DNA of 64,000 nucleotides from Vitreimonas sp. (lineage in GTDB: Bacteria; Patescibacteriota; Microgenomatia; UBA1400; PJMF01), in NCBI GenBank assembly GCA_035627515.1, contig DASPLQ010000012.1, forward strand, positions 714,331 through 778,330, in the 5' to 3' direction. Position 1 is the first letter of the stretch. Each line of letters starts with the position of its first letter. The position numbers and the translations under genes were made by a program. Under the pieces are notes generated by a model. The model was given only the letters and a program-made list of their open reading frames with translations, was not told the DNA's origin and made no database searches. This document shows, piece by piece, positions 2,520 through 23,570 of the stretch.

Positions 2520-2527
2520 CTCAACCT

Positions 2528-6582: not shown

Positions 6583-7920
6583 ATGAATACCGTTCTTTCT
6601 CTTTCGAAGCTAGAGTTTAACGAGCAATTTAGCCAGGCTCTCGAAATTCTCGAAAAAAGTACCCAACATGTTTTTATCACTGGTCGTGCGGGGACTGGCA
6701 AATCTACCCTGCTCAGTTACTTTCGCCAGCAGACGCAACAAGCCTATGTGGTGGCCGCTCCCACCGGAGTGGCGGCGCTCAACGTCCAAGGAGAAACTAT
6801 TCACTCCTTATTTAAATTTTGGCCGAATATCACTGTCGCTGAAGCCAAGAAGCAAGCCTATAAAGCCCACAAGAAACGAGAGCTTTTTCAAAACCTCCAG
6901 ATTTTAGTCATCGATGAAATTTCGATGGTGAGAGCTGATTTGATGGATGCGATGGATATTTTTTTGCAAACCATCCGCGCTAATGATACGCCGTTTGGTG
7001 GTGTGCGCTTAATTGCCTTTGGTGATCTCTATCAATTACCACCGGTTTTAAATCGTGAAGAAGAGATTGCCTTTAGTTTGATTTATCCTTCTCCCTATTT
7101 TTTTGATTCCGAAGTTTTTCAACGCTTGTTGCAGATGCAACCATCACCTCTGACAGTGATTGAACTCCAGACAATTTATCGCCAATCTGAGCAAGAATTT
7201 ATTGAGGTTTTGAATGGGATTAGAGATAAGACCCTGACCTCTGAGCAATTAAACATCCTTAATCGCCGAGTCAATGATGAGTGGGCTGAACACCTAGATA
7301 CGGCAATTGTGTTGACTGCCACTAATTATCAGGCAGAACACATCAATACTCGCCAACTGCAAGCTTTAGATGCTGAACCATGGTTTTATCAGGGCTCGAT
7401 TACCGGCAGTTTTGATAAGCCCAGTTTTCCCACCGATGAAGTGATCACGCTGAAACCTGGAGCCAGAGTGATGATGGTTAATAATGACGCTGACAAACGC
7501 TGGGTCAATGGCAGTATGGGCCGGGTAGTCAAGTTTCAACCCAAGCCAGACAATCCTGCTGCCACCTTAGTGATTGTTAAGCTCGATAGTGGTGAAGAGG
7601 TGGAGGTGGCACCGTATTCATGGGAAATCAGCCAATCTATTTATAATCAAGAAACGAACACGATTGAGAGAGAAGTGATTGGCAGTTTTTCTCAATATCC
7701 TCTGCGGTTAGCGTGGGCAGTGACGATTCATAAAAGCCAAGGTAAAACTTTTACCAAAGTCATTGTGGATCTTGGTCGTCAAGCGTTTGCAGCGGGGCAG
7801 ACGTATGTGGCCTTAAGTCGCTGCACCTCTTTGGGTGGCCTCCATCTGGTACGTCCCCTCCGAGACAACGATATTCAGCTCGATTCTCGAATTCTCTCTT
7901 TTCTCAAGACACTTAAATAA
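6583..7920 (+). CDS. PIF1/RecD-like ATP-dependent DNA helicase (AAA_30 + UvrD_C_2)
   Basis: Walker A GRAGTGKST, Walker B LVIDEISMV, and the C-terminal HKSQGKTF...YVALSRCTSL helicase motifs. Confidence 0.8.
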   Translation: MNTVLSLSKLEFNEQFSQALEILEKSTQHVFITGRAGTGKSTLLSYFRQQTQQAYVVAAPTGVAALNVQGETIHSLFKFWPNITVAEAKKQAYKAHKKRELFQNLQILVIDEISMVRADLMDAMDIFLQTIRANDTPFGGVRLIAFGDLYQLPPVLNREEEIAFSLIYPSPYFFDSEVFQRLLQMQPSPLTVIELQTIYRQSEQEFIEVLNGIRDKTLTSEQLNILNRRVNDEWAEHLDTAIVLTATNYQAEHINTRQLQALDAEPWFYQGSITGSFDKPSFPTDEVITLKPGARVMMVNNDADKRWVNGSMGRVVKFQPKPDNPAATLVIVKLDSGEEVEVAPYSWEISQSIYNQETNTIEREVIGSFSQYPLRLAWAVTIHKSQGKTFTKVIVDLGRQAFAAGQTYVALSRCTSLGGLHLVRPLRDNDIQLDSRILSFLKTLK

Positions 7921-7973: not shown

Positions 7974-8045
7974 TCCCCGATAGCTCAATGGCAGAGCAAT
8001 TCGCTGTTAACGAAAAGGTTCTAGGTTCGAATCCTAGTCGGGGAG
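7974..8045 (+). tRNA. tRNA-Asn (anticodon GTT)
   Basis: Hand-folded cloverleaf. Perfect 7-bp acceptor stem TCCCCGA/TCGGGGA, D-arm GCTC/GAGC, anticodon loop CTGTTAA giving GTT, T-arm CTAGG-TTCGAAT-CCTAG, discriminator G, CCA not encoded. One A-A mismatch in the anticodon stem. Confidence 0.85.
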
Positions 8046-8113
8046 CTTCTGTTTTCCATCGAGTAAAATTTCCATAGCCCTCTTGGGTTCCGAACCTTTG
8101 TTATACTTCACTC

Positions 8114-8746
8114 ATGAAAATTAACAAAAAGTTTCAATCAACTGTTGAAGCATATAATCAATTTGCTCCTCAGTTTATTAAACATCTAGAAGCAAAAGTA
8201 TCAAATATTGAGATGGATAAATTTGATAGTCACGTTCAAGGAGGATATATCCTTGATGCTGGATGTGGTTCATGCAGAGACGCAGCCCAACTTATAAAGA
8301 GGGGTTATAAAGTTCTGGGGATTGATGCTTCAGAAGGGCTGTTGAATGAAGCAAAGAAAATTCATCCCGAGGTACCTACTCAGTTAATGAGTTTGACAGA
8401 ACTGGAATTTGAAACAGTGACTTTCAATGGGGTGTGGTGTAGGGCGACGCTGCTCCATATTGATAGAGATGAAGTACCTAAAGTTCTGTCGAATTTTCAC
8501 AAAATTTTGAAATCTCAAGGCATTTTATATATACAAACAAAAAAAGGTGAAGGAGAAGGAACTCAACCAGTCCCATTTGATCCATCTATGACACGCTTTT
8601 TCACTTTTTTTGAAGAAAAAGAACTATGTCAATTAGTTACTAATGCTGGATTTGAAATTGTAGAAAGTTATACGTACGACACCAAAGATAGAGAAAAGAG
8701 TGCTAAGGGACAAGAGTGGGTAGTAATTTTTGCAAGAAAGATTTAA
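8114..8746 (+). CDS. class I SAM-dependent methyltransferase
   Basis: Motif I ILDAGCGSCRD and an acidic post-I motif LGIDASE; visibly AT-rich; first gene after the tRNA. Confidence 0.75.
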   Translation: MKINKKFQSTVEAYNQFAPQFIKHLEAKVSNIEMDKFDSHVQGGYILDAGCGSCRDAAQLIKRGYKVLGIDASEGLLNEAKKIHPEVPTQLMSLTELEFETVTFNGVWCRATLLHIDRDEVPKVLSNFHKILKSQGILYIQTKKGEGEGTQPVPFDPSMTRFFTFFEEKELCQLVTNAGFEIVESYTYDTKDREKSAKGQEWVVIFARKI

Positions 8747-8805
8747 TTATTATTGAACAAGTTTAGCTTAAGGGGAGATAATAGTTTGTTTTTTCAAACG
8801 ATGTA

Positions 8806-8842
8806 GTTCGGTAATCTTTCCACAAAGTGAGCTCCTGTTTTT
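8806..8842 (+). repeat. degenerate copy of the tRNA-Asn 3' half plus downstream flank (att-like repeat C)
   Basis: GTTCGgtAATC...GAGCTcCTGTTTTT aligns to tRNA GTTCGAATCC...GAGCTTCTGTTTT (T-loop through 3' flank). Confidence 0.5.
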
Positions 8843-8871
8843 AACCTCAACACTTTTTATATAATAATCTC

Positions 8872-9234
8872 ATGTCAATAAAGAACAAGATGACTGGGGA
8901 TTTTAGTGATAAGCCTACAACGCAAACTTTTTTTGTCGCTATAACCAAATATATTGAATCACTAGGTCTAACCAATAAAGAAGTGAAAGCTCAAGTAAGT
9001 TACGGTGTAAACAGGAAATTTATATGGTTGTGGGCGTACGACAGAACACCCGATGGGATTCTTTACATGACCGTTTGCTTAGATAAAAAAATTGACGACT
9101 CCCACTTTCACAATGTTACGCAGATAAGCAAAAATCGTTGGAATCATCATGTCGAAGTAAGATCACAAGCAGCAGCAACAAGCGGCTGGTTACGTCTGCT
9201 TATCCATGAGGGATATGAGTTTGCTAAGAAATAA
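8872..9234 (+). CDS. hypothetical protein (120 aa)
   Basis: ORF in the AT-rich island; no motif recognised. Confidence 0.4.
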   Translation: MSIKNKMTGDFSDKPTTQTFFVAITKYIESLGLTNKEVKAQVSYGVNRKFIWLWAYDRTPDGILYMTVCLDKKIDDSHFHNVTQISKNRWNHHVEVRSQAAATSGWLRLLIHEGYEFAKK

Positions 9235-9329
9235 GTCTTAACTACTTCCAACATAGGGAGCATTAGTCTTCACTCAAGAACTGTTCTTGTCTCCCACTCA
9301 ACTTTTAAACTTTTGTTATACTTGGGACT

Positions 9330-9848
9330 ATGGCCCAATCTTTAGTTCGAAATGCCACTTCAGCCGATGCTTTAGCTATTGCCCAGATCCATGTTAAAAC
9401 ATGGCAATGTACATATCGGGGCCAAGTTCCGGATAGTTTTCTCGATTCGATGTCAGTTCAGCAAAGGAAAGAAGATTGGCAAAAAGCACTAGATAATCCA
9501 GCAAAAGATATCTATGCACTTGTTGCAGAAGTAGATAGCAAAATTGTGGGTTGGTGTACTGGCGGGGTTAACAGAGATGAAGATGTAGATAAAGATACTG
9601 GAGAGCTTCACGGAATTTATATTGACCCAGAATATATAGCCAAAGGTGTGGGTACAGCCCTAATGGAATATCTTCTCCAGCTGTTAAGAAAAGATGGCTA
9701 CAAAAAAGCGACCTTGTGGGTTCTCGATACTAATCAACAAACGAGAGAGTTTTACGAAAAGAAGGGCTGGCGCGTAGAGGGAAGAACGAAGGTAGAGCCA
9801 AGAGACGGTTTTTCACTGAATGAAGTAAGATACATTATTGAGCTATAA
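9330..9848 (+). CDS. GNAT family N-acetyltransferase
   Basis: Acetyl-CoA binding motif region IAKGVGTALMEYLL (Q/RxxGxG/A); 172 aa. Confidence 0.75.
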   Translation: MAQSLVRNATSADALAIAQIHVKTWQCTYRGQVPDSFLDSMSVQQRKEDWQKALDNPAKDIYALVAEVDSKIVGWCTGGVNRDEDVDKDTGELHGIYIDPEYIAKGVGTALMEYLLQLLRKDGYKKATLWVLDTNQQTREFYEKKGWRVEGRTKVEPRDGFSLNEVRYIIEL

Positions 9849-9862
9849 AAAATTTTCACGAT

Positions 9863-10624
9863 ATGACTTCAACTAATGTATCGGTAGCCGCTTTTCAAGG
9901 TCAAGCTATTTATAGTGATATTCCTAAAGCGCTTAAGGTAATCAAAGAAACACTTCAATGGGCTGAGAGCAAAGGTGTGGATATACTCTGTTTTCCAGAA
10001 TGTTACTTGCAAGGCTATACGTGGAGTGAAGAAATATCTCGTAAGGTGAGCATTGAGTTACATTCAGCAGATTTTAAACACATCCTTGAACAACTTCATA
10101 GCTATAAAACCACGGTAATATTAGGAGTAATAGAGAGAGACGCTGAGAAAATCTACAATACCGCAGTTGTAATAGAAAAAGGTAAACTCTTAGGTAAATA
10201 TCAAAAATGTCACATTCACAATAAAGAAGAGTTTTTTACATGTGGAACTGCGTATCCCATCTTTAAAAAGAAAGGCATAAAGTATGGAATTAATATCTGC
10301 TATGACTCAAGATTCCCTGACTCAACAGAAGCGTTAGCTAAACAAGGTGCTCAAGTTATTTTCAGCCCTTTAAATAATAGCTTGCCTCACGCCAAAGCTG
10401 ATGATTGGAAAGACAAGCACTTACCCTACTTTATTGAAAAAGCAAAACAAAGTGGTTGTTGGATTGTTACATCAGATGTGGTTGATAATTCAGAAACTCA
10501 CACCGGTTATGGTTGTACAGCTTTGGTTAGCCCAGATGGAAAGGTGATTGAGTATTTAGAACATTCCAAGCAAGGGAATTTTCTGAGAAAACTAAGTTTG
10601 TTCGAAAATCGTTCCAAAGAGTGA
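9863..10624 (+). CDS. carbon-nitrogen hydrolase (nitrilase superfamily)
   Basis: ILCFPECYLQGY (catalytic Glu), a KxH Lys region, and the INICYDSRFPD catalytic Cys motif: the E-K-C triad. Confidence 0.8.
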   Translation: MTSTNVSVAAFQGQAIYSDIPKALKVIKETLQWAESKGVDILCFPECYLQGYTWSEEISRKVSIELHSADFKHILEQLHSYKTTVILGVIERDAEKIYNTAVVIEKGKLLGKYQKCHIHNKEEFFTCGTAYPIFKKKGIKYGINICYDSRFPDSTEALAKQGAQVIFSPLNNSLPHAKADDWKDKHLPYFIEKAKQSGCWIVTSDVVDNSETHTGYGCTALVSPDGKVIEYLEHSKQGNFLRKLSLFENRSKE

Positions 10625-10737
10625 GTATTATCCTATAACAATTAATATTTTTCCAAACTTTAAATCTTATTTTGCTATATAAAGAAGCTATTTCAATTAA
10701 AAGAAATGTGTTAACCTGGTCTTGAAGGTTTTTATTT

Positions 10738-11361
10738 ATGCTAGAAAATAATGCACAGATAGGCTTAGAAGTTAACAAAACTCAAGACCTGGGTCCGGTA
10801 TTAAACACTAATCTAGTTGTCCCAAGAGAAAGTGTAACTGGGTTTGAGAATACTCCATGCTTGGTATTTGGTAATGGAGTTGAGATTGAGACTGTAGTCT
10901 ATGCCAAAAGTACCCAAGAGAACGTGAGAGAGATGGCCGATGGCAGAAGCGTCCTTTCATTACACCAAAGAAGAGGAAGCGATGGAGAAGGTACAGATGT
11001 AGTCAAAGTACATTTCCTACCCACAACTTCATTAGCAGAAAGGGCGTCAGATCCTGAGCAGGTGGCTGAGTCAGAGAAGTGGCACATACAAATAGATGCT
11101 ATAACAGGTTTTTTATCTATGGCGAATGCGTTTACAAAAGATCAAATTATTATTTCTAATGGCTCCTCACCTGATTATTATTTATTTATGGATACTAATC
11201 CACAATTTGCAGCCTTTATGAGATTGAGGTGTGGATTCAGAGGAACTATTGGAGGTACTCAGGTATGGATAAAAAGAAGCGAGTTCACATCAGAAGAGAA
11301 CAGAGCGCTAATGAGCAGCTTTTTAGAATCATTGAAAGAAAGAGTGAGTACTGTTTCATAA
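10738..11361 (+). CDS. hypothetical protein (207 aa)
   Basis: ORF with no recognisable motif; convergent with the 524-aa ORF, sharing a 6-nt 3' overlap. Confidence 0.4.
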   Translation: MLENNAQIGLEVNKTQDLGPVLNTNLVVPRESVTGFENTPCLVFGNGVEIETVVYAKSTQENVREMADGRSVLSLHQRRGSDGEGTDVVKVHFLPTTSLAERASDPEQVAESEKWHIQIDAITGFLSMANAFTKDQIIISNGSSPDYYLFMDTNPQFAAFMRLRCGFRGTIGGTQVWIKRSEFTSEENRALMSSFLESLKERVSTVS

Positions 11362-12930
11362 CTGGTTAATTAACTCAGATACCCATTTAGTTTGACTATC
11401 CAATGGCTTAGATAACTGTAAAGTTAGATATCCAGTTCTAGAAATGTGTGGATCATCAGAATTAGTAATCATTCTTGTGCCTGGCAATAATTCTAAAACA
11501 TGATTAACTAATTTTTCCTTATCATTTCTTATAGCGCTATCTATTTCTGAATTAACACGATGAATTCTGAAAGGAACTGTTTCCATTGCAATCAAGACAG
11601 TATCAATGTTTTTTTTGTGCAAAATAATAAGAGAACTAACTAAAGAAATTAACTTAGCTGATGGAGTTTGTGTTTTGACAAGTTCTTTGAATTCCTGTGG
11701 TAAAAAAAACTTCTTGAGTGAAGATAAGTTGAATTTTTGTTTTTGAAAGACTTCATCTTTTTCTAAGGCTTGCTGTTTCACCTTTTTATTATTGCGAAGT
11801 AAACTTATAAGATTCCATATGCGGTCTAAGTCTTCTTCAGGTTGATTTGAATTCAAATCTTTTAGCAAAACCTGTATTTTTGATTTCCACCAAAACTCAA
11901 GTGATGTTTCACTAGATTCTCTCAAATGAAGTTCAGTTAGATTTTTCTCAATAGTAGTGTAGTCGATGACATCTATTTCATTATTAAAGGTCAAAATAGT
12001 GAATAAGTCAGGAAAGTAGTTCTGTAAAATTAAAATAGCTTTATTTAATTCAATGCGGTTTCTTTCTAGAGCTAACTCAAGGCTTCTCTGTGATTGATTC
12101 TCAATTTTAGGTAATTGGATTGACTGGATAATGGCTGTAGTGGGTCCTGTAATTCCCACACGAACGTCGGGTAGCCGATATTCAGGTGCTTGTTTCCCAA
12201 TAGCTTCCAGAGGTGAAAGAGTAAATTGAAGTTCTTCAGGACCTTCATACACTAAATCCGGCGACTGGATTCGCCAACTGAGAAGTCCTTGATCTAAGGC
12301 AACTGAAGACCAAGATGTAGTATGAGCTAGAACAGTACTTTCCAACTGGTTTGCGAGCTGTTCAAAAAAAACACTGCCATGAATTAAATCACCTAGTGTC
12401 ATTTCTCTTAAATAACTTTCTACTAAGGTACTTAACCTCTCAATTGGTAACTCATTGTGAAGAAATATTCTTTGAAAATATTTCTCCCCACTATCTTGTC
12501 GCGTCTGGGTGGCTGTGATGATCCTATCAAGTGAGGTAACTAAGTTTGCTAAATCATCAACTCTAAGCAGTTTATGATAGTGGTAAAATTCCTCATTTTT
12601 ATCTTCATTATCGGGGTCTTTTTTCTCAAGATACTCAGTGTATGCATCAGGGTTATTCCAATAGCTCAATATAAATTGACCTTCGGATGTGGCGAATTGA
12701 ATAGCATCAAAGCCTAATCGACTGCGAGGTGAGAAAGAGGCACGGACAGAAAAAGAACCACTTGAGAGAAGTCTCAAAACGAGTTCTTTGCTAAGCGTAG
12801 AATTAGTTGGTGGTAAACTTTCCAAGTAGTTTTTAGCTTTGTCTAATACTTGATGAAAATTCGATTGAGGTCCTACTTCGTTGTTTGCCTTGGCTCTAAT
12901 AACTGCACCAACTGGGTATTCTAGAATCAT
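11356..12930 (-). CDS. hypothetical protein (524 aa), orphan
   Basis: Long uninterrupted ORF in AT-rich DNA. No P-loop, no nuclease, recombinase or HTH motif detected by eye. Confidence 0.5.
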   Translation of the reverse strand: MILEYPVGAVIRAKANNEVGPQSNFHQVLDKAKNYLESLPPTNSTLSKELVLRLLSSGSFSVRASFSPRSRLGFDAIQFATSEGQFILSYWNNPDAYTEYLEKKDPDNEDKNEEFYHYHKLLRVDDLANLVTSLDRIITATQTRQDSGEKYFQRIFLHNELPIERLSTLVESYLREMTLGDLIHGSVFFEQLANQLESTVLAHTTSWSSVALDQGLLSWRIQSPDLVYEGPEELQFTLSPLEAIGKQAPEYRLPDVRVGITGPTTAIIQSIQLPKIENQSQRSLELALERNRIELNKAILILQNYFPDLFTILTFNNEIDVIDYTTIEKNLTELHLRESSETSLEFWWKSKIQVLLKDLNSNQPEEDLDRIWNLISLLRNNKKVKQQALEKDEVFQKQKFNLSSLKKFFLPQEFKELVKTQTPSAKLISLVSSLIILHKKNIDTVLIAMETVPFRIHRVNSEIDSAIRNDKEKLVNHVLELLPGTRMITNSDDPHISRTGYLTLQLSKPLDSQTKWVSELINQL

Positions 12931-13038
12931 ACTTCAGTATAAAGGAGTTTATGTTTACTGCCAAACGCACACATTTTTGCTATGCTTAGTTTGTCATGGG
13001 TGAAAAAGGATTACAAACTATTGAAAATTGATAAAGTA

Positions 13039-13075
13039 TTTCGGGTAAAGTCCCACAAGGGGAGCTTTTTCTATC
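13039..13075 (+). repeat. degenerate copy of the tRNA-Asn 3' end plus flank (att-like repeat A)
   Basis: TTCGGGTAAAGTCCCACAAGGGGAGCTTTTTCT. About 27 of 31 nt identical to repeat B. GGGGAGCT matches the tRNA 3' terminus. Confidence 0.5.
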
Positions 13076-13127
13076 CGAACCATATTTTCGTCAAGTGAAG
13101 TGACTCGAGTCCTAGCTGGATGTCCCA

Positions 13128-13883
13128 CTATTTATTATCCGAACTTATTTTACTTTCTACAAATTGATGAATAGACGCTAACATCTGAGCAATATCTTTG
13201 TCTTGAATTAACACTCCCACAGGTTGTTGATTTGAATATGTAAATAAGATTACTTGGTTGCCAGATATATGTATGCCCCCAGGAAATGAGTAGTTAGCGG
13301 GTAGAAAGTACGTTTGTCGGAACTCAGTTATATCTTTTTTTATTTCTTTCAGAGCCGCTTTGTTTTTCGGTGTAATGAGTTTTGTGGGAATTTTTTTACT
13401 TACTCTGAGACTAGTATAGAAGGGGATTGGATCTCCGTGTTGTGTGTAGTTCCCAAAAACGAGAATTGGCTCTTTTTTGTCAATTAATGTCTGTTCTAGT
13501 AATGTTTGAACTCCAGATTCACCAGTAAAGATCGAAATCTTTGGTATATTGAGTTCACTTCGCTCCATTAATTCAAGTTCCTTTTGAACTTTTTCTAGCG
13601 AATTAATTTTTTTATTTAACTCCTGTTGCTGGTTCTTGAGATATTCTTTAATTCTGACTGGTGGTTCAGCATGAAAAAATAAAATCCCATTATCTGTCGA
13701 AACGCTGACTAACCCTTTTTGGATTAAAGTGTCCAAAGTTGTGTAGGCAGAAGCGCGCTTAATACCTGTACCCTTGGCAATTTGGCCTGCTTTAAGGTTA
13801 TTGTTCTCTAACAATGCTAAATAGATTTTGGCCTCATACTGGCTAAATCCGCATTTTGTCAGTGTGTCTTGAAGCTCTAACAT
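13128..13883 (-). CDS. TrmB family transcriptional regulator
   Basis: N-terminal winged HTH YEAKIYLALLENNNLKAGQIAKGTGIKRASAYTTLDTLIQKGLVS typical of TrmB; 251 aa. Confidence 0.7.
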   Translation of the reverse strand: MLELQDTLTKCGFSQYEAKIYLALLENNNLKAGQIAKGTGIKRASAYTTLDTLIQKGLVSVSTDNGILFFHAEPPVRIKEYLKNQQQELNKKINSLEKVQKELELMERSELNIPKISIFTGESGVQTLLEQTLIDKKEPILVFGNYTQHGDPIPFYTSLRVSKKIPTKLITPKNKAALKEIKKDITEFRQTYFLPANYSFPGGIHISGNQVILFTYSNQQPVGVLIQDKDIAQMLASIHQFVESKISSDNK

Positions 13884-13962
13884 AGTGTTGTCGGAATGTT
13901 ACAACATTTTGACAAAATAATCAAGTCGAATATACTGCACCTAATCAGTTAGAAGGATTTAT

Positions 13963-14349
13963 ATGTCCAAAGAAAATGCCGTTACTTTTTTAGACCCATT
14001 TGTAATAAGTGCCTACAAGCATCTAGTTTTAGGAATCGACTTTAGACAAGCTTTTGCAGATTCAGTGAGCTTAGTTGATTTTGAACAGAAAAAAGAGGAG
14101 TTATTGAAGGAAATAGATAGAAGGCTACTTAGTGGTTCTGTTGAAGATTTGGGTAAGCTTATTAAAAGTATGCAAATTACCAGAAATTCAAACAAAGATG
14201 AGTTGCAAGAAAGAGCTGCTCTAGAACGTTTAGAAAACGAACTTGGGTTAACAGTTGAACAGGCTTCTCTTGTATTTCAGACATGCACTCAGTTAAACGA
14301 TCAATTATTTAATAAGCTCTGGGGAATTAGTTCTCAAGGTCAAGGTTAA
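13963..14349 (+). CDS. hypothetical protein (128 aa)
   Basis: ORF divergent from the TrmB gene; no motif recognised. Confidence 0.4.
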   Translation: MSKENAVTFLDPFVISAYKHLVLGIDFRQAFADSVSLVDFEQKKEELLKEIDRRLLSGSVEDLGKLIKSMQITRNSNKDELQERAALERLENELGLTVEQASLVFQTCTQLNDQLFNKLWGISSQGQG

Positions 14350-14351
14350 TT

Positions 14352-15035
14352 ATGCCAATAGGTACTTTTATAAACATAGTAGCAGTAGTAATCGGTGGAG
14401 TAGTTGGGCTACTTCTAAATAAAAACTTTCCACAAAAAATTCAACAGATCGTATTTCAAGGAATTGGTCTGTGTACTTTATTAATTGGTATGCAAATGGC
14501 ACTTCAAGTAAAAGATCCGCTTATTCTTATTTTTAGTATCTTGATTGGGGGAATACTGGGTGAGATTACCAGACTAGAAGATAGAATTGAAAATCTCAGT
14601 AATATGCTAAAGAAAAGAGTTGGCTCTCAGGATGAAGGGTTTACTCAGGGACTTGTAACTGCTTTTCTCATTTTTTGTATTGGCTCTATGACGATTGTTG
14701 GCGCATTAAATGAAGGGATCTCTGGTGATCGTTCCTTGTTACTCACAAAATCAGTCTTAGACGGGTTTACCTCAATTGCCCTAGCTTCAACTTATGGGAT
14801 TGGTGTGCTTTTTTCAGTGATTCCAATGCTTATTTTCCAAGGTGGCTTGACTGTTTTTGCTAGTCAATTCAGTGACCTGTTTAGCCAATCTCTTCTTTTA
14901 CAACTTACGGCTACAGGAGGTATCCTAATCTTAGGTATTGGTATTAATTTGCTCGAAATCAAAAAAATAAAAGTAGTTAATCTCTTGCCTTCTTTACTAG
15001 TTGCTGTATTACTTACAGTGCTTTTACTTAAATGA
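14352..15035 (+). CDS. DUF554 (YqgA-like) membrane protein
   Basis: N-terminus MPIGTFINIVAVVIGGVVGLLL and a multi-TM profile typical of DUF554; 227 aa. Confidence 0.65.
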   Translation: MPIGTFINIVAVVIGGVVGLLLNKNFPQKIQQIVFQGIGLCTLLIGMQMALQVKDPLILIFSILIGGILGEITRLEDRIENLSNMLKKRVGSQDEGFTQGLVTAFLIFCIGSMTIVGALNEGISGDRSLLLTKSVLDGFTSIALASTYGIGVLFSVIPMLIFQGGLTVFASQFSDLFSQSLLLQLTATGGILILGIGINLLEIKKIKVVNLLPSLLVAVLLTVLLLK

Positions 15036-15367
15036 AAGGAAGTATGATCACAGTCGACGACTTTAAAAAGTTAGATATTCGTATTGGAAAAGTTATTTCA
15101 ATCGAAAAGGTCCCAGATGCTGATAAACTCCTGAGGTTTGTTTTTGATGTCGGTGATGAGCATAGGCAAATCATGGCGGGAATGGCAGAGTTTTTTCTTG
15201 ATCCTTCTCAGTTAGTAGGTAAAGAGATGCCCATTTTAATGAATATAGAGCCAAGGAATTTCCGTGGATACACTAGTCATGGAATGATTATTGCTGCTGA
15301 TGTAAATGGCGCTCCGGTTCTTTTACATCCTGAAAAAGAGATTCCTGCTGGGAGCATTGTTCGCTAA
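15032..15367 (+). CDS. tRNA-binding (Myf/EMAP domain) protein, CsaA-like
   Basis: DFKKLDIRIGKVISIEKVPDADKLLRFVFDVGDEHRQIMAGM is the classic tRNA-binding OB-fold motif. ATGA start/stop overlap with the upstream gene. Confidence 0.75.
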   Translation: MKGSMITVDDFKKLDIRIGKVISIEKVPDADKLLRFVFDVGDEHRQIMAGMAEFFLDPSQLVGKEMPILMNIEPRNFRGYTSHGMIIAADVNGAPVLLHPEKEIPAGSIVR

Positions 15368-15377
15368 CTAAATAACC

Positions 15378-15412
15378 GTTCGGATAAAGTCCCACACCGG
15401 GAGCTTCTGTTT
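15378..15412 (+). repeat. direct repeat of the tRNA-Asn 3' end plus flank (att-like repeat B)
   Basis: GGGAGCTTCTGTTT (14 nt) is identical to the sequence spanning the tRNA 3' terminus and flank (8041-8054); 16 of 19 nt match over the wider stretch. Confidence 0.6.
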
Positions 15413-15559
15413 GAAAAGATGGTTTTAAATCAGGCATTTTCAAGAATATATCAGTATATTTTTAGAGTTCGACTGAATCTCTGTATTTTTCTGCCTATTT
15501 TTTTTGTTCACCAAGTACTCTAGAGTGTGTAAACAGACTAATCCACCCAAATAAGAAGA

Positions 15560-17560
15560 TTAAAAAATTATCTTAAATCTTTTCTCAGCCTCTTCAAATA
15601 GTTTTATAACTCTATCTATCGTTTCTGAAGAAAGCTTTACTTCACTCTGCTCTGTTAGCTTCAGAAAGTTTCTAGATAATAAAACCTTATCTTTTTTATG
15701 TTGTTTTATATATTCTGAGTTTTTTGAAGTGTAACTTACGCTTTCATCTTCTAAAACATACTTTTTGAAATCCTCGGCAGCAAAGATATCTTCTATAGTG
15801 CTATTGTCACTATCTAATACAGACAATATTTCCTCTTTAGATATTAACCAATCTTTTCTAAGATGCTTTTCAGCATCTTTTTTACCTTTATCGTTGTCAT
15901 ATAAGTAAAGCACATTACATCCCCATCCATTAAGAATAGTACCTACAAAAGGCATATTTCCTGACCCACCTCCAAATATGAAATTTAATATAAATTTACC
16001 GGTCAATAGCTTAAAACTATTTAGATAGTAAACATCAGATGGTCCTTCACATACGATGTTGCTTTTCTTATCTAAGTTTACAACACCAGAGGTAAGCTCT
16101 AATCCAATTGCAGTTAATAAAGGTGTTAATGTTTCTTTGTCGGCGACTTTATGAATTTTCGACTCAATATGTGTGCCAATATTATATCCAATTGTGTACA
16201 AAATCCTCCGAAGCTTTTCTTGTTCATCTTCAGTTAGCTCATCAACTTTAGTTTTTAGTTGATAGTATATCCTGTCATCTTTTTTGTGTTTTTTTTCCTC
16301 ATAATACTTCTTTAAATCGTCTGTAATTTCAGATATTTGAACTGCTTCTATTAGTTTTGGGATCTCAGCTCTTTGAACAAGTCTTATTCGATGCAATTTG
16401 TCAGTATCTATTAGATATGGTGAATGGGTTGTAAAAATAATCTTCTTTTTTTTAGAAGTATCTTCTAATTTATTTAAGATATCTCTCTGTGCAGATGCAT
16501 GTAGAAATAAGCCTGGTTCGTCTATTAATAAAATATTATCCTTTTCTTCTTTGGATCTAGCAGTTATACGAATATAGAAAGCCAGATGCCATCTTTTTCC
16601 TTGACTTCTAATTTCAGGAGGGTAATATGATTCATCTTCTCTTATTTGAAACATTAGTTGTTCTGAATCCCAGTCAATTTGAATATTAGAAAAGTCTTGG
16701 GACCAAAACCTCTTATATTCTTGCTTTAGCTGTAGGTTTAATTGTTCTTTATGTTGTAGTTTTTCATGTATCTCACCTGAAGTAATAACATTTAGATCTA
16801 AGCCAGTTATTAAAGCAAGATCCTTCATCAGGGGATGACTCTGTACATCACTTAGAGCTAATGTAGAAGGGAAAGTTTCATCAAAAGACCTAAATAGAAT
16901 AAAGTTGGGTAGTAATGTTTTTATTACTGGGATGAAATTTACTTGGATATTATTTAGCAGTGAGAGCTGATTTGCTAGTAAATCAACATTTTGGACAATG
17001 TCTAATAGTTCTTTTTTTTCTTCAGATAAAGAAAGTGCGTCTCTAAGTTTGGAAATTTTTGTGTTGTAGGTAGTAAAATCCTCTATACTATCTGGTACTA
17101 AATGATGTAGTTCTTCACGATCTCTAAAACTATTAATTAATTTTTGTAGTTGGTCTTTGGCTTTTTCTTTGATAGTAGTATACGAATCAGCAACACCAAA
17201 CAGTTGTTCATATGTTTTATCATCTATGAAATACTCTGAAGGAAACCTTTTATTAATTGTAATTTCAATACCTTGACCTTTGCTATTTGGTTCAATCTTT
17301 AGTTGTTTCTTTATTACATCATTATCAGATTCTTGAAGGGAAAATGTTAAAGCAACCTCAGGTGTCCTATCTTTCCTAAATAAAGATTTTGCTTTCTCTC
17401 TGATAGGAATATCACTATTAAAATCTTCAAGAGCCTCTAGCAAGGCTGTTTTTCCAGCCTCATTTTTACCTGCAAATATAGTAATACCATCTTCAAAATT
17501 ACATTCACCGCTATCAATAATTGACTTATAGTTTTTAACTCTGAACCTAAGTAATTTCAT
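15560..17560 (-). CDS. OLD-family ATP-dependent endonuclease (ABC ATPase N-domain + TOPRIM C-domain); GajA-like / class-1 OLD
   Basis: Walker A GKNEAGKT (aa 31-38), Walker B/D-loop ILLIDEPGLFLH (aa 343-354), H-loop FTTHSP (aa 376-381). TOPRIM Glu in IVCEGPSD (E505) and DxD in YLYDNDKGK (D555, D557), 50 aa apart as in OLD/GajA. Very AT-rich. Confidence 0.8.
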   Translation of the reverse strand: MKLLRFRVKNYKSIIDSGECNFEDGITIFAGKNEAGKTALLEALEDFNSDIPIREKAKSLFRKDRTPEVALTFSLQESDNDVIKKQLKIEPNSKGQGIEITINKRFPSEYFIDDKTYEQLFGVADSYTTIKEKAKDQLQKLINSFRDREELHHLVPDSIEDFTTYNTKISKLRDALSLSEEKKELLDIVQNVDLLANQLSLLNNIQVNFIPVIKTLLPNFILFRSFDETFPSTLALSDVQSHPLMKDLALITGLDLNVITSGEIHEKLQHKEQLNLQLKQEYKRFWSQDFSNIQIDWDSEQLMFQIREDESYYPPEIRSQGKRWHLAFYIRITARSKEEKDNILLIDEPGLFLHASAQRDILNKLEDTSKKKKIIFTTHSPYLIDTDKLHRIRLVQRAEIPKLIEAVQISEITDDLKKYYEEKKHKKDDRIYYQLKTKVDELTEDEQEKLRRILYTIGYNIGTHIESKIHKVADKETLTPLLTAIGLELTSGVVNLDKKSNIVCEGPSDVYYLNSFKLLTGKFILNFIFGGGSGNMPFVGTILNGWGCNVLYLYDNDKGKKDAEKHLRKDWLISKEEILSVLDSDNSTIEDIFAAEDFKKYVLEDESVSYTSKNSEYIKQHKKDKVLLSRNFLKLTEQSEVKLSSETIDRVIKLFEEAEKRFKIIF

Positions 17561-17842
17561 AACCTACCTTTAAAGTTAACGTGATTTTAACAGATTGAAA
17601 TGAAAATAATATTAAGTAAAGATCATCTACACACTGCAGTTAAATATCTAGTATCATCAGACTTACTACTAACTTAACTAAAATGAGTAAAATTCTAACT
17701 TCCTCCAACAGAGGCAGCAAACGACATCGAACCTTTTTTCTTCAATTAATAACTCTAATCTAACCACAACCCAACTCGAAATGTTCAACCCTCTAACGTT
17801 TTTTGTAGTACAATTAGCCTATAAAATTAATAGGAGAATAAA

Positions 17843-18343
17843 ATGAGTAAGCTAATTACCTGTATCTGGTTTGTTAATAACAATGGAGAAGAGGCAGTAA
17901 GATACTACATCGACACTTTTAAATCAGCCCCTGGTAATCATGAAGCAAAACTGGGAGATATCACCAAAGCACCTAAAGCGTCTGAAGAAGTTTCTGGTAG
18001 ACCTGAGGGGTCCGTTATGACAGCTGAATGCGAGCTTGACGGTATAAGCTTCATGGCTCTAAATGGTGGTCCTCTCGAACAATTCAAACTTAATGGGTCA
18101 ACGTCTTTTATAGTTGAGTGTGAAACCCAAGAGGAAATTGATTTCTTCTGGGAAAAGTTATCAGCAGTTCCTGAAGCTGAGCAATGCGGATGGTGCACTG
18201 ATAAATTTGGCGTCACATGGCAAATCGTCCCCAGAATTTTAGATGAAATGATGAGAGACCCTCAAAAAGCTGAGGCGGTAACTGCTGCTTTTATGCCAAT
18301 GAAGAAACTTGACCTGGAAGCAATTAGAAAAGCTGGTGAATAA
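17843..18343 (+). CDS. VOC-family protein, PhnB-like (3-demethylubiquinone-9 3-methyltransferase domain)
   Basis: ITCIWFVNN...EAVRYYIDTF and EQCGWCTDKFGVTWQI motifs, shared with the VOC genes at 35226 and 35655. Confidence 0.7.
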   Translation: MSKLITCIWFVNNNGEEAVRYYIDTFKSAPGNHEAKLGDITKAPKASEEVSGRPEGSVMTAECELDGISFMALNGGPLEQFKLNGSTSFIVECETQEEIDFFWEKLSAVPEAEQCGWCTDKFGVTWQIVPRILDEMMRDPQKAEAVTAAFMPMKKLDLEAIRKAGE

Positions 18344-18369
18344 AGCTATTAAAAAAATAGAGTTTTAAG

Positions 18370-18567
18370 ATGAAAAACTCTCATACTGAGTTTCACAAAG
18401 ACGGCTCAATTAAAGCAATAGGAAAGCTTAAAGATGGAAAGCGCGATGGTTATTGGAAATGGTATCGCAAAGATGGAAGCAAGCTGAAAACTGGATACTT
18501 CAAACAAGGGATATTAGCAAAAGAATGGATGAAGTACGACAAAAAGGGGAAACTGATTAAATACTGA
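18370..18567 (+). CDS. MORN-repeat protein, YwqK-family antitoxin-like
   Basis: 65 aa containing KDGKRDGYWKWYRKDGSKLKTGYFKQG MORN-variant repeats. Confidence 0.55.
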   Translation: MKNSHTEFHKDGSIKAIGKLKDGKRDGYWKWYRKDGSKLKTGYFKQGILAKEWMKYDKKGKLIKY

Positions 18568-18578
18568 GCAGTAATTTT

Positions 18579-19145
18579 ATGAAGTTACCTAAAAGTCTAA
18601 CAACTGTAACACCGCTTTCAAAGGCTTTAGCTTTAATTCTTTTTTTCCTATTACCCATCTTAGGTTTTTATCTAGGCATGAAGTATCAGCAAGCTCTTAT
18701 TTTTAGTCATTCAATCTCCCTAATTGAAAACACGTCTTCAGATTTAGACATAGAGAAATCAGATACAACTAATTGGCTAGATTATAAAAATAATACCTGG
18801 GGGTTTGAACTAAAACTCCCCCCCACTTGGGAAGGATATTTAGTAAGTGAACATAATTGGACCACAAATCCAACACATGAGTATACTGCTGATATTTGTA
18901 TTTATTTTAAACGCTTTGATAGTATTCCTGCCTGTATTTTGCATGTGAGTGTGTTTTCTGCTGAAGAATTGCAAGCCGTAAGTAAAAAAGGTGCTTTACC
19001 TAATTTATTAGGTCAGTCGAATCAATTTTTCTTCGCAGCCAATGAGTATGATCCTCAATGTGCGCAATTAGATTCTTTTCAGTGTGATCGATCAAAAGAG
19101 CTGCCTGAGATTTTATCCACTTTTAAATTGAACGCTAAAGAATAA
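18579..19145 (+). CDS. hypothetical membrane-anchored or secreted protein (188 aa)
   Basis: N-terminal hydrophobic segment LALILFFLLPILGFYLGM; Cys-rich C-terminus. Confidence 0.4.
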   Translation: MKLPKSLTTVTPLSKALALILFFLLPILGFYLGMKYQQALIFSHSISLIENTSSDLDIEKSDTTNWLDYKNNTWGFELKLPPTWEGYLVSEHNWTTNPTHEYTADICIYFKRFDSIPACILHVSVFSAEELQAVSKKGALPNLLGQSNQFFFAANEYDPQCAQLDSFQCDRSKELPEILSTFKLNAKE

Positions 19146-19174
19146 AGAATGTAGTTCCTGTTATACTCACACCT

Positions 19175-19966
19175 ATGACCTCATTAGAAGAGCAAAATAT
19201 TAAACCGTTTAATTTGACTGATTCTGAACAAACGCTTCATTTAAAAGACACACTTGCTCAATCTGTCGATTTATCTGCAATTAAAGAAAAGCTAATGTGG
19301 GTGGACTGTGATATCTCACTATTTGATATTCAGTTATTAAAACAAGTCCTAAATCCAGAATTAATGGGTATTACTGTTTTCTCTTCAATGGATCAGGATG
19401 CTTTTAATAAATGGTCAAAATTTAGTAGTTATCCTGACAATGAATCCCTAGTACTTATCTCAAATCCTGAAGCACCCCAGGCTCTTTTTGAAGATTCAGC
19501 TTCATTTTGTTCTATTTTATTTTCTATAGATGAAAGTGGGGCTTCTGTATTACTGCACTATCCTGTGGTGAGTGACAGTGGGGCTTTAACACTTACGGAA
19601 GAAATGAAACTGCAGTTAGAGGATTTTGCGAAAGCTGCAATGAAACTCTCCCAAAATAGAAAAAACGTATTAACATCTACCAATGTATCTGATAAGAACC
19701 GAAACCAGGTACTCAATTTTATTAAAGATTGCATCGGTGAAGACTTTCATTTAGAAACTATTTTTACTCAGGAAACATTTGAAAATCAAAATGATATTAC
19801 ATCTACTTCAGTACAATTAACAAAAAATTTTATTAATGGTGTACTAATTATTCCCAAACAGTTGACCATAGATAAAAGAACAAAGGTTTTTTTATTTACC
19901 AATAAGACAGGGTACACATACGATCAATTAATGGAAACATTAACCAGAAATCACTTCACTCGATAA
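19175..19966 (+). CDS. hypothetical protein (263 aa)
   Basis: ORF at the distal end of the AT-rich island; no motif recognised. Confidence 0.4.
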   Translation: MTSLEEQNIKPFNLTDSEQTLHLKDTLAQSVDLSAIKEKLMWVDCDISLFDIQLLKQVLNPELMGITVFSSMDQDAFNKWSKFSSYPDNESLVLISNPEAPQALFEDSASFCSILFSIDESGASVLLHYPVVSDSGALTLTEEMKLQLEDFAKAAMKLSQNRKNVLTSTNVSDKNRNQVLNFIKDCIGEDFHLETIFTQETFENQNDITSTSVQLTKNFINGVLIIPKQLTIDKRTKVFLFTNKTGYTYDQLMETLTRNHFTR

Positions 19967-21426
19967 ACCCTCCACACCAATGATGGATTGTGTTCTTTTG
20001 GCACTGAGAGGGCGAGGTCAGTTTCTACACCGGGTGGTGGTCCACCTTGCCAAGTGAGTAAGAGGAACATTTCGTTTTCAGGGTATTTTTCTCGATACTT
20101 TTCAACTTGTGTGGTTTGTATGTCGTCGGCGCCGATAATCTTCATGTTTTTATGTTGTGCATACCGGATATTAAGACCATTGGGAAGCACGCCCAGTGGA
20201 TTATCAACGAGAATAACTACTTTTTGATCTTGGTGGGAATCGAAAAATGTATAGAGCTCAGGCAACCCTGTCCCCGAAAAATTCCCCTCGAAAAACTGCA
20301 GCCGCTCTAGTGCAGGAAGTTTAGCAGAGTCAGGATTTATAAGCACGGTATAAGTGGTGAAAATTTGTACTGAAAAGAAGGCCACTAAAGCAAAGGGAAG
20401 TAAAGTGTGTTTTACGGCGAGTGTATTTCTCACTTGCATCAGCCCGTGAGCGCTGAGTATCACCAATGGCCAACACATAAACAACACGTAGCGGGGAAAG
20501 AGTTGTTTGCCGTACAAAATTAAGGCCAGGATCGGGATTAAAAAGTGAGCCAACAGGAAAAAGGTTTCCCGATATTTTTGCTTTTTTAGTAGTACTCCCA
20601 CAGGCGCGAAAAGAAAAATACCTAGACCAAGATAGCCAAATAACCAAGAAGTGATGTTTTTGGTATTTTCAAACACACCACTCACTGGATCTTGGATCAC
20701 TTCAGCTGTCGTGCGGATGAAGAGATGGTTTTTCTGTGCGATCACGGGGAAGTATGTGGATAGTCGCAGCAGCGTCCCGATTCCTAGTGCTACTGAAATG
20801 CTAAGTGCAAAAAGGCAAATAAGCTTCAGAATTTCTGAACGGGTTTTATTAAGAGCGAATAGTGTGGCAGGAGCTGACAGTAACAGAAAAAAAGTGGCTG
20901 AGGATTTAGTCAATAGCCCCAAACCCATCACCACACCTAACCCCAGTGCAACTAAGATGCTGCCTCGTTTTGCTAATATGACTGCCAAGTAGCACGAAAA
21001 AATGCTCAGGCAGAGCAACAAGCCATCCATCAGAGCCAAGACATCATAGATTAGAAAAAAAGGCAGGATCAGATAAAGCACCAGCGCCAGGTGGGCTGTT
21101 TGTTTATCAAAAAATTCTTTGGTCACTAAATAAACACCAGTGAATGAACCGAACGCCGCACAGAATGACACTAACCGCCCAGCCACGATGGGGTTGGCTA
21201 TGAAATGCATGAAGACTGATGTGAGCCAGATAAATAGGGGTTGTTTGCCATCGATGAGTGAGATCCAGATATTAAAGCGGAAGTTTCGTAGCAGTTGCTG
21301 AGCCCAGTAGAGATAAATGGCTTCATCACCAAACAACGGAAAGCGAATCAATACCACTAATCGGGTGAGGAGAAAGAGGGAAAAGAGAAACAACAGGAAA
21401 CGATACTTTTTGAGGACTTCCATCAA
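19951..21426 (-). CDS. GT-C glycosyltransferase, ArnT/PMT (GT39/83)-like
   Basis: N-terminal FPLFGDEAIYLYWAQQL (the DE motif of ArnT/PMT); more than 10 predicted TM helices; 491 aa. Confidence 0.7.
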   Translation of the reverse strand: MMEVLKKYRFLLFLFSLFLLTRLVVLIRFPLFGDEAIYLYWAQQLLRNFRFNIWISLIDGKQPLFIWLTSVFMHFIANPIVAGRLVSFCAAFGSFTGVYLVTKEFFDKQTAHLALVLYLILPFFLIYDVLALMDGLLLCLSIFSCYLAVILAKRGSILVALGLGVVMGLGLLTKSSATFFLLLSAPATLFALNKTRSEILKLICLFALSISVALGIGTLLRLSTYFPVIAQKNHLFIRTTAEVIQDPVSGVFENTKNITSWLFGYLGLGIFLFAPVGVLLKKQKYRETFFLLAHFLIPILALILYGKQLFPRYVLFMCWPLVILSAHGLMQVRNTLAVKHTLLPFALVAFFSVQIFTTYTVLINPDSAKLPALERLQFFEGNFSGTGLPELYTFFDSHQDQKVVILVDNPLGVLPNGLNIRYAQHKNMKIIGADDIQTTQVEKYREKYPENEMFLLLTWQGGPPPGVETDLALSVPKEHNPSLVWRVYRVK

Positions 21427-22820: not shown

Positions 22821-23570
22821 ATGCAGATTTATATTGGGACTTCAGGTTTCACACTTCAGAACTTTTATGAGCCGCAGGTTAAATCAGCTGATAAGTTGGC
22901 GTACTATGCTCAACATTTCACCACCGTGGAAATCAACTCCACCTTTTATCACTTACCACGCTTAACTACATTACAAAAGTGGCAACAAGCTGTTGGTCCT
23001 GATTTTGTTTTTACTTTTAAGGTAAATCAGGATATTACTCATCAACCGTCATATATCCTCAATCAGGAGATAGTTAATAAATGGTTTGAGGTTTTTGAGA
23101 CCTTTGCTACCACTGACAAGCGGCATTTGATGCTTTTTCAGTTCCCAGCACATCTGGATTATGAAGAGAAGTATTTTAAAGACTTGGTAGCACTTTTGCC
23201 TGAAACTTTTAAATATGCTTTTGAGTTCAGAAATACTTCATGGTTTGTTCACCCGGTTTTTGAAGTAATAGACAAGAAACAAGCTACTATTGTGATAGCT
23301 GATGGGCCGGTGAAGAGAAATGGTCAACCAAGGTGGCCCAAATTTAGTTTAGATTCAGCACCATTTACTTATATTCGTATGCACGGTCAGCCTCAGCTCT
23401 ATCATTCTTCGTATTCTGACGAAAAGCTAGACCGATGTGCGGACTTCATTTTAAGCAGACAGAAAAAATCACTTGCCACCTATGTATATTTTAATAATGA
23501 TGCTAGCGGTCACGCAGTTGCGAATGCTCAGACACTACAAACTCTATTAGAAGAAAAGAGACATTCTTAA
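22821..23570 (+). CDS. DUF72 (YecE-like) family protein
   Basis: MQIYIGTSGF...YAQHFTTVEINSTFY matches the DUF72 N-terminal signature. Confidence 0.75.
   Translation: MQIYIGTSGFTLQNFYEPQVKSADKLAYYAQHFTTVEINSTFYHLPRLTTLQKWQQAVGPDFVFTFKVNQDITHQPSYILNQEIVNKWFEVFETFATTDKRHLMLFQFPAHLDYEEKYFKDLVALLPETFKYAFEFRNTSWFVHPVFEVIDKKQATIVIADGPVKRNGQPRWPKFSLDSAPFTYIRMHGQPQLYHSSYSDEKLDRCADFILSRQKKSLATYVYFNNDASGHAVANAQTLQTLLEEKRHS

Follow-up and report, generated by a model that had tools for sequence, protein, structure and literature searches.

The stretch analysed here, a 64-kb window (64,000 nt) of contig DASPLQ010000012.1, carries a tRNA-Asn(GTT) gene followed directly by an AT-rich island (8047-19970), which a first-pass annotation had ascribed to a tyrosine integrase. 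The analysis of the repeats that divide the island pointed to another enzyme class. The region is best read as a relic of integration at tRNA-Asn by elements of a large serine recombinase (LSR) family, with at least three stacked elements that have lost their LSRs and are now immobile (probability about 0.8). In the following, attB is the target in the tRNA and attP the site of the element, each with a core (O) between two arms (B and B', P and P'), and an integrated copy is bounded by attL and attR, the two hybrids of these. The parts of the island are, from left to right:

7974-8046 (call end 8045/6), plus strand: tRNA-Asn(GTT), called by ARAGORN and matching the Rfam tRNA model with 68.8 bits.
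8024-8032 and 8040-8046, plus strand: putative B arm of the left attB, the T-loop/acceptor 3' half of the tRNA, with GGTTCGAAT (8024-8032) and the core GGGGAGC (8040-8046).
8047-8096, plus strand: candidate decayed right half of attL, with the inner segment TTCTGTTTT and a displaced outer motif of P' type, TCCGAACC (8089-8096).
8114-8746, plus strand: S-adenosylmethionine (SAM)-dependent methyltransferase (Pfam Methyltransf_25/11/23; GC content at third codon positions, GC3, 0.25), putative cargo remnant of the tRNA-proximal element.
8806-8840, plus strand: repeat copy A, a P arm in degenerate form (core GTGAGC, flank TCCTGTTT), putative attR-type scar of the first element.
8841-13038: DUF5655 protein, GNAT acetyltransferase, carbon-nitrogen hydrolase, and orphans of 207 aa and 524 aa (GC 0.367), putative cargo remnant of the second element.
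13039-13081, plus strand: repeat copy B, with P arm (13039-13061), core GAGC (13062-13065) and right half TTTTTC-TATCCGAACC.
13082-15377: TrmB-like helix-turn-helix (HTH) regulator (minus strand), 128-aa orphan, DUF554 membrane protein and tRNA_bind/CsaA-like protein (Pfam, NCBIfam; GC 0.364), putative cargo remnant of the third and oldest recognisable element.
15378-15412, plus strand: repeat copy C, a near-perfect P arm with core GGGAGC and flank TTCTGTTT, putative outermost attR.
15413-19970: AT-rich stretch past the last att scar (GC 0.331, the lowest of all; GC3 0.22-0.34).

The AT-rich island after tRNA-Asn that had been proposed is real. Its GC content is 0.353 versus 0.439 in the left and 0.413 in the right flank, and GC3 is 0.22-0.37 for the island genes versus mostly 0.39-0.50 for the flanking genes, one of which (22821-23570) has 0.344. 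The GC and codon-usage profile showed low GC and GC3 with sharp edges, at the tRNA end on one side and at a convergent gene pair near 19970 on the other. A PIF1 helicase gene abuts the tRNA-Asn, with gdhA and rpoD further upstream (rpoD at 4672-5763; Pyr_redox, malic enzyme and gdhA, in this order, in positions 1-4634). The gene calls of the modules were borne out by Pfam, which placed methyltransferase, DUF5655, GNAT, CN-hydrolase, TrmB-like, DUF554 and tRNA_bind/CsaA domains on the island and border genes and further matched an AAA_15/AAA_21 ATPase, a glyoxalase-like protein and a GT39/PMT_2 gene. No recombinase, integrase or transposase domain was found in any open reading frame (ORF) of at least 70 aa in 7974-19970, no Phage_integrase match in the island, and tblastn of the window with the LSR of a related contig (L006, below) gave zero matches, in agreement with the earlier statement that the island holds no recombinase; it is very probably immobile. 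None of the 31 LSR homologs lies on the 1,409,795-bp contig carrying the proteins of the window, which fits an immobile relic. The locus shows the generic marks of a genomic island: tRNA adjacency, deviant composition, flanking direct repeats and accessory cargo.

The three repeat copies, A at 8806, B at 13039 and C at 15378, form a direct-repeat family, all on the plus strand and all intergenic. B and C are identical at 25 of 28 positions (0 expected), and a motif-profile nhmmer search of the window returned only B (E 2e-9) and C (E 3e-11) as significant matches. Copy A is the weakest part of the array: it was missed by the profile and is degenerate, with 19/28 (68%) to B and 25/35 to C. The tRNA end scores 24/35, and both A and the tRNA end beat the best of 40 composition-preserving shuffles (20-23). 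The close pair is hence B and C, not A and B, which had been credited with 27 of 31 identities. An exact 14-mer, GGGAGCTTCTGTTT, occurs at 8041-8054 and 15399-15412 and nowhere else in the 64 kb (shuffles expect 0), so that copy C and 8041-8054 together make up a 14-bp direct repeat; the exact recurrence noted earlier was right, and the second copy, given there as 15398-15411, starts one base further to the right. The 14-mer covers the last bases of tRNA-Asn plus the trailer, with 5-6 nt (GGGAG(C)) inside the tRNA.

The repeats have only the core of 6-9 nt and a short inner region in common with the tRNA. Their bulk (GTTCGGATAAAGTCCCACAC) is element DNA, the P arm of an LSR attP, and its antisense strand encodes the C-terminal tail of an LSR (LPVWDFIRT...). 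The antisense frames read LPVWDFIRTVI and a stop in C, LPLWDFTRN in B, and LTLWKDYRT in A (L-T-L-W-..-R-T). Copy C has 1 mismatch in 27 to the attP arm of L006, and the three P arms have 1, 3 and 9 mismatches of 27, a very unequal decay. The motif TCCGAACC occurs twice in the 64 kb, at 8089-8096 (43 nt past the tRNA end) and at 13074-13081 (right half of B), both on the plus strand and just past a core. In the window, the P arms (A, B and C) and the P' motifs (8089 and 13074) stand in the expected order and orientation.

The B/C consensus was scanned against 185,579 species-representative genomes and 241 M metagenome records; related contigs are designated by L numbers. The species-genome scan returned a single contig, L002, whose match runs 13 nt past the pattern and agrees with copy C at 32/34 positions. 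The metagenome scan returned 8 more contigs, 7 of which carry the block (A/T)CGTTCGGATAAAGTCCCACACGGGGAGC with unrelated flanks. The eighth, the GC-rich L003, fits the search pattern, not the flanking conserved bases, and was treated as a chance match. Conservation of the motif stops sharply after GGGGAGC, the next bases being CA, AA or TT. In L006 the motif continues as ...GGGGAGCCACGTCTCACTTATCCGAACC and is contiguous with a partner arm, CACGTCTCACTTATCCGAACC. The resulting 47-bp imperfect palindrome occupies, in antisense, the final codons of a gene for an LSR (Recombinase + Zn_ribbon_recom); the gene product ends in ...ISETWLPVWDFIRTIGQM and a stop. L002 carries an LSR fragment with 96% protein identity, broken exactly at CTTATCCGAAC, and its motif lies 7.5 kb away, beyond the LSR and cargo. 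This circular permutation matches the form expected of an integrated element, B-O-P'-LSR...cargo...P-O-B'. In L004, O-P' and 57 nt of the LSR 3' end at 8117 are followed by a P arm at 12911 (4.8 kb on), and one further solo P arm lies upstream. L020, a contig of 14.2 kb, has the attP configuration with circularly permuted gene order and a P-arm variant of unchanged spacing. The sites are related as by reciprocal exchange, with attP as P-O-P' in L006 and L020 versus attL plus attR as O-P'-LSR...P-O in L002, L004 and L011.

By blastn, the ~20 nt of the repeat outside the tRNA are 93-100% identical to the LSR 3' coding end/attP arm in several contigs, and the antisense strand of nearly every solo P arm still reads LPVWDFIRT(I/V)...stop. 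We take the repeat to be the P arm of an LSR attP, and the solo copies would be attR-type junctions with the element on their 5' side. LSR decay was seen elsewhere too: the gene is truncated in L002 and nearly gone in L004, and L007 and L010 hold a 280-nt P-end remnant. This 280-nt non-coding unit (L007 4637-4915; L010 3344-3621) is 91% identical between the two contigs in different gene contexts and ends exactly at the P-arm core, with nothing in common beyond; it appears to be the minimal remnant of the P end of an element.

The presence of the motif in intergenic positions of ~9 other contigs with unrelated flanks would also suit a dispersed lineage repeat resembling a repetitive extragenic palindrome (REP) or a terminator, whose likeness to the tRNA end is a coincidence. 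Copies B and C can indeed form hairpins followed by T-rich tracts, B with a palindromic fold of z -3.1. Such a repeat is scarcely credible here, as the motif is not abundant (the scans gave 1 match among 185,579 species genomes and 8 among 241 M metagenome records), a simple terminator scan calls none of the copies, and in L006, L002 and L004 the motif is one half of a site split by recombination. Its conservation, moreover, ends sharply 3' at the core and extends 5' as homology of up to 280 nt, and the 280-nt unit has a z of -0.4 and no Rfam family. On the first-pass reading the repeat should be restricted to the tRNA locus: within the 64 kb its P-arm matches are indeed confined to the island, but in other genomes it occurs at non-tRNA sites, there as an LSR att half-site and not as a REP-like element.

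Three further candidates were tried and rejected. A structured RNA or tRNA-like 3' end, suggested by GGGGAG-CCA, found no Rfam match to the repeats or loci and no ARAGORN tRNA near the solo copies, and the unit from L007 and L010 folds no better than shuffles. An intrinsic terminator was not called at the copies by the consensus scan. For a phage origin, IMG/VR gave 0 matches to the motif and to the LSR.

The geometry of the sites was compared between the tRNA and the repeats. The attP of ~47 bp has the form GTTCGGAT-N15-GAGC-N11-TATCCGAAC and lies inside the last codons of the LSR gene. From GTTCGRAT to GAGC the distance is 18 nt in tRNA-Asn (window, L011, L013 and L023; in the window from GTTCGAAT) and 23 nt in the P arms, without exception (A, B, C, L006 and L020). 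On the other side, from GAGC to ...CCGAAC/GAAC, it is 20 nt in P' arms versus 15 nt in the right half of copy B, whose outer motif lies 5 bp nearer the core than in attP and thus has attB-type spacing. The inner segments of tRNA and P arm are alike at 19/23 positions, as would be expected for binding by the recombinase domain. For LSRs, there is experimental support for a rule by which the zinc-ribbon-domain (ZD) motifs of attB lie 5 bp nearer the centre than those of attP, with attP of ~50 bp and attB of ~40 bp as imperfect inverted repeats and attB ~10 bp shorter (Rutherford et al. 2013, PMC3783163). The natural sites here show this geometry, being short imperfect inverted repeats with the 5-bp shift of the ZD motif. 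Because of this attP/attB shift, the T-loop likeness noted in the first-pass annotation, although real, is offset 5 nt from the true T-loop, and the 16/19 match of C to the tRNA end, also noted there, is the inner region. Identity between partner sites spans GGGGAGC(CA/TT), 7-9 bp, with the symmetry centre on the 4th G. The lineage does not encode CCA, and the tRNA, B, C and L002 all have GGGGAGCTT as their core. Loss of CTGTT from the TTCTGTTTTTC typical of the lineage could have given the spacer TTTTTC of copy B.

The LSR family comprises 31 homologs of 513-545 aa, the source of one being Candidatus Woesebacteria. A gene with Resolvase, Recombinase and zinc-ribbon domains adjoins the att site in L006, L011-L016 and L020-L023; the window has no such gene, and because the recombinase is absent it represents a relic of LSR elements and not a functional member. 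L011 and L023 have an intact tRNA-Asn(GTT) that the LSR overlaps with its 3' end, as in ...GGTTCGAATCCTAGTCGGGGAGCCA abutting AGTATTGCTTATCCGAACC, and in L012, L013-16, L021 and L022 a degenerate tRNA-Asn 3' half lies at the LSR junction. The gene rpoD (housekeeping sigma-70) was found 0.5-4 kb beyond the junction in every case, 66-79% identical to that of the window, and L011 also has Pyr_redox, malic enzyme and gdhA in the order of the window. From these LSR junctions at the tRNA-Asn/rpoD locus, the tRNA-Asn of the window is identified as the orthologous attB of the element family. Besides the LSR and two conserved hypotheticals, the intact elements carry an HTH gene, SpoVG or DUF5659 and a primase of Prim-Pol or Toprim type, and SAVED or SMODS (CBASS-like) or DruA/NurA/HerA-like genes are among their variable cargo.

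The degenerate junctions showed a tRNA-Asn-like 3' half or a mutated anticodon loop at L012 ~11530-11600, L013 ~11530-11600, L021 ~2210-2290 and L022 ~11530-11600, and ARAGORN called no tRNA at these four. Because the junction copy is only half or mutated, a functional tRNA-Asn should lie elsewhere in these genomes.

In the first-pass annotation, a tyrosine integrase had duplicated the tRNA 3' end, the repeats being displaced tRNA-Asn 3' ends (attL/attR), and was later lost. The integration hotspot at the tRNA-Asn 3' end, with att remnants splitting foreign-looking DNA into modules, holds. The choice of a tyrosine enzyme would also be natural for a tRNA-adjacent, AT-rich island whose 14-bp direct repeat spans the tRNA terminus, as tRNA 3' ends are typical targets of tyrosine integrases and mycobacteriophage serine integrases avoid tRNA genes (PMC9262239, PMC5704250). 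Only 5-6 nt of the repeat, however, lie inside the tRNA, compared with a common core usually of at least 15 bp expected of such an enzyme; the other ~20 nt match the LSR 3' coding end/attP arm, the T-loop-like motif stands 5 nt off, relatives have LSR elements at exactly this tRNA, and neither the island nor any related element showed a tyrosine integrase. A classical tyrosine-integrase island is accordingly very improbable, and the repeats are mostly LSR attP P arm.

The relic of LSR integration at tRNA-Asn is carried by the homology of the repeat to the LSR attP arm, the circularly permuted attP/attL/attR sites elsewhere, the syntenic tRNA-Asn target and the 5-bp offset. The source elements would have been integrative elements of ~10-14 kb from bacteria of the candidate phyla radiation (CPR; Microgenomates/Woesebacteria-like), with a replication module of primase type, cargo that varies and is often of defence type, and an LSR. 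Their attB would be the T-loop/acceptor 3' half of tRNA-Asn plus the trailer. Crossover in the common GGGGAGC(CA/TT) core would rebuild the tRNA, set the LSR beside it (attL) and leave the P arm joined to the downstream DNA (attR).

The order of parts in the window is tRNA (B arm)-core-decayed P'-methyltransferase-A (P-core) in the first module, DUF5655, GNAT, nitrilase, two orphans-B (P-core-P'-like) in the second, and TrmB-like, orphan, DUF554, CsaA-like-C (P-core-TTCTGTTT...) in the third. At least three elements would thus lie head to tail, one from the tRNA/attL through the methyltransferase to A, one from A through DUF5655 and on to the 524-aa orphan and B, and one from B through TrmB and on to CsaA and C, forming an array of three gutted elements at 8047-15412 in which copy B would be the junction between two elements. 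Each would have lost its LSR and replication core by deletion, the P-proximal cargo and the P-arm scars staying behind; the LSR gene expected at 8047-8096 appears to be wholly deleted. The same polarity of decay, with P-end cargo kept, was seen in L002, L004, L007 and L010. As no LSR is left, the array is very probably immobile. We infer how many integrations there were and in which order, and that a modified attL served as the next target. Accretion would require that attL be reset into an attB-like site, for example by the 5-bp-shorter spacer of B, or that a multimer or composite integrated.

Since canonical LSRs do not recombine attP with attL (Rutherford 2013, PMC3783163), repeated integration is mechanistically awkward. 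This lends some appeal to one integration at tRNA-Asn of a composite or multimeric element with attP-like junctions (P-O-P') already inside it, or of a cointegrate of related elements, followed by decay. Copy B, having a P arm and a P'-like arm in the configuration of the L006 junction, would suit such an event, as would the similar GC of the three att-delimited modules (0.354-0.367). The unequal P-arm decay (1, 3 and 9 of 27), in contrast, suggests different ages or source elements and favours separate events, and the spacer of B is 5 bp below that of any attP, is out of frame for the LSR tail and has attB-type geometry. A single integration is for these reasons considered unlikely.

Several points weigh against the reading as stacked LSR elements. 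Head-to-tail accretion needs an extra assumption because canonical LSRs do not use attL. No remnant of an LSR or replication module is present in the window, so that the link rests on sites of ~30 nt, and none of the fetched elements carries a homolog of the cargo genes or the orphans of the window. Copy A is weak. The canonical attL, as in L011, reads GGGGAGCCA-AGTATTGCTTA-TCCGAACC; at the tRNA of the window its right half is recognisable only by the 8-mer, displaced ~29 nt, and is missed by the P' profile. Within the 10 kb read, the intact elements of L011-L016, L022 and L023 showed no attR, and the integrated copies of L002 and L004 lie outside tRNA genes. The motif copy count covers the 64-kb window.

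The stretch 15413-19970 had been counted as a fourth module. It is AT-rich and foreign-looking as described, but it lies past the last att scar and lacks a repeat on its right: neither the P nor the P' profile matched anywhere in it, and no right-hand att remnant is recognisable. A place for it in the att-delimited array, or in the same history, would be a further inference; the stretch may be an older insertion with vanished scars, an island acquired by another route, or ancestral flank. The GT39/PMT_2 gene (19951-21426, minus strand) and the last island ORF (19175-19966, plus strand) converge with a 16-nt overlap (19951-19966), which leaves no intergenic spacer for a surviving att scar at the compositional boundary. 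The homologs of the GT39/PMT_2 gene are at most 39% identical and an orthologous right flank was not found; with no close relative available (rpoD at most 79%), the right boundary rests on composition alone. The genes of this stretch and the orphan ORFs of the island are:

15560-17560, minus strand: OLD/AriA/PtuA/GajA-like defence-type ABC ATPase (Pfam, PADLOC).
17843-18343: glyoxalase-like protein, beside two orphans.
10738-11361: orphan ORF, 207 aa.
11356-12930, minus strand: orphan ORF, 524 aa.
13963-14349: orphan ORF, 128 aa.
18579-19145: orphan ORF, 188 aa.
19175-19966: orphan ORF, 263 aa.

The ATPase has 666 aa. The AriA, PtuA, Old and GajA models match only the N-terminal ~460 aa, the C-terminal ~200 aa are without a domain match, and it has no adjoining partner gene of the kind known from PARIS, Septu or Gabija. 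Searches of Pfam, NCBIfam, PHROGs and PADLOC matched none of the five orphan ORFs, and the fetched loci contained no homolog of them.

The record label 'MAG TPA: Vitreimonas sp.' (an alphaproteobacterium; proteins P0001 and P0152) looks wrong. The relatives of rpoD, the helicase, the GT39 gene and the LSR elements are all from Microgenomates, Woesebacteria or other CPR bins, and the GC content is 41%. The nearest available relatives are distant, their rpoD being only 66-79% identical to that of the window, and the neighbourhoods of the PIF1 helicase homologs (L017-L019) are not syntenic with it. Among the other contigs, L002 (JBILGT010000032.1, 8.3 kb, binned as Limisphaerales) is almost entirely a decayed LSR element: beside the truncated LSR it encodes Fur, a low-complexity protein of 1022 aa and a ClpB-like ATPase. 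The contig probably belongs to a CPR genome and was binned wrongly. L010, a contig from a relative of the organism of the window, has a SAM-I/IV riboswitch match at 6712-6847 (minus strand; 42 bits, gathering score 41.1) upstream of a 369-aa gene.

The C-terminus of the LSR differs with the state of the element (L006 1026-1100 versus L011 11480-11560; also L012, L013, L020 and L021). The excised or attP form ends in ...TWLPVWDFIRTIGQM and a stop (L006) or with a 36-aa tail (L020), and the integrated forms end in ...TWLPD (L011), ...TWLLG or ...TWLPRVDSNHEP, each followed by a stop and read from the antisense strand of the tRNA. In L011 the stop codon of the integrated form is supplied by the T-stem of the tRNA. 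Such a state-dependent tail could act as an integration-dependent switch.

A distant LSR (24% identity to P0121) at 6563-8108 of L018 ends inside tRNA-Glu(TTC) with the same antisense overlap, near SMODS/AGS_C cargo, and in the sister contig L019 (1-75) the assembly breaks exactly at tRNA-Glu. LSRs that target tRNAs may be common or general in CPR bacteria. It is possible, if doubtful, that LSR families of CPR bacteria took the niche of tyrosine integrases, using tRNA 3' halves (tRNA-Asn; tRNA-Glu in L018) with the T-loop as the zinc-ribbon motif. Their attP, placed in their own last codons, would then swap a tail of 14-36 residues for a few residues read from the antisense tRNA, as a possible stability or directionality switch of the integrase, and small deletions, of which the 5-bp-shorter spacer of copy B would be one, would reset the inert attL to a new attB and so permit the head-to-tail stacking that canonical serine integrases forbid.

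With the mechanism changed from tyrosine to serine recombination, the 12-kb compositional anomaly would be explained by the accumulated, immobile remains of integrative elements. As a relic it is of an ordinary kind, and what is moderately novel is the tRNA-targeting LSR family that it exposed. Scars of ~30 nt revealed a natural LSR family with readable attP (47 bp, int 3' end) and attB (37-40 bp, tRNA-Asn), which obeys the 5-bp-shift rule yet targets and restores a tRNA gene, unusual for the enzyme class. Mobile DNA in CPR bacteria is little documented, and such elements, with primase modules and CBASS-/Druantia-like cargo, seem to be a main means by which these small genomes acquire accessory and defence genes. 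In genome engineering, where LSRs with short defined att sites are sought, a tail-changing, tRNA-directed family would offer a test case for directionality.

In architecture, the LSR resembles the integrases of phiC31, Bxb1, Listeria A118 (LI integrase), SPbeta and TP901-1, with the same Resolvase, Recombinase and zinc-ribbon/coiled-coil organization. Further likenesses to serine integrases are an attP of ~47 bp as an imperfect inverted repeat next to int, an attB ~10 bp shorter with the outer motifs 5 bp toward the centre, and hybrid attL and attR bounding the integrated copies. Characterised serine integrases mostly cut within protein-coding genes at a core of 2-3 bp, mycobacterial phages with such enzymes avoid tRNA genes, and IMEs (integrative and mobilizable elements) with serine recombinases enter protein genes (PMC9262239, PMC5704250). 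In contrast, the target here is the 3' half of a tRNA gene that is rebuilt through a common core of 7-9 bp, attP lies in the coding 3' end of the integrase itself so that integration swaps its C-terminal tail, the hosts are CPR bacteria, and the window itself is without an integrase. Literature searches found no description of a tRNA-targeting LSR of this design, which is not proof of absence.

The tRNA islands of tyrosine integrases (P4-like elements, ICEs (integrative and conjugative elements), IMEs, and pathogenicity islands, with tandem accretion) likewise sit at a tRNA 3' end, leave the tRNA intact, deviate in composition, are divided into modules by nested att remnants, carry accessory or defence cargo and have lost mobility genes. 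Unlike in those islands, the att remnants here are homologous to the attP arm of a serine recombinase and not to a long tRNA-derived core. In mycobacteriophages of the BPs type, attP also lies in an element gene, and the C-termini of the product differ between the integrated and excised states (PMC9262239); there a tyrosine integrase acts and the repressor is affected, whereas here the affected protein is the serine integrase itself.

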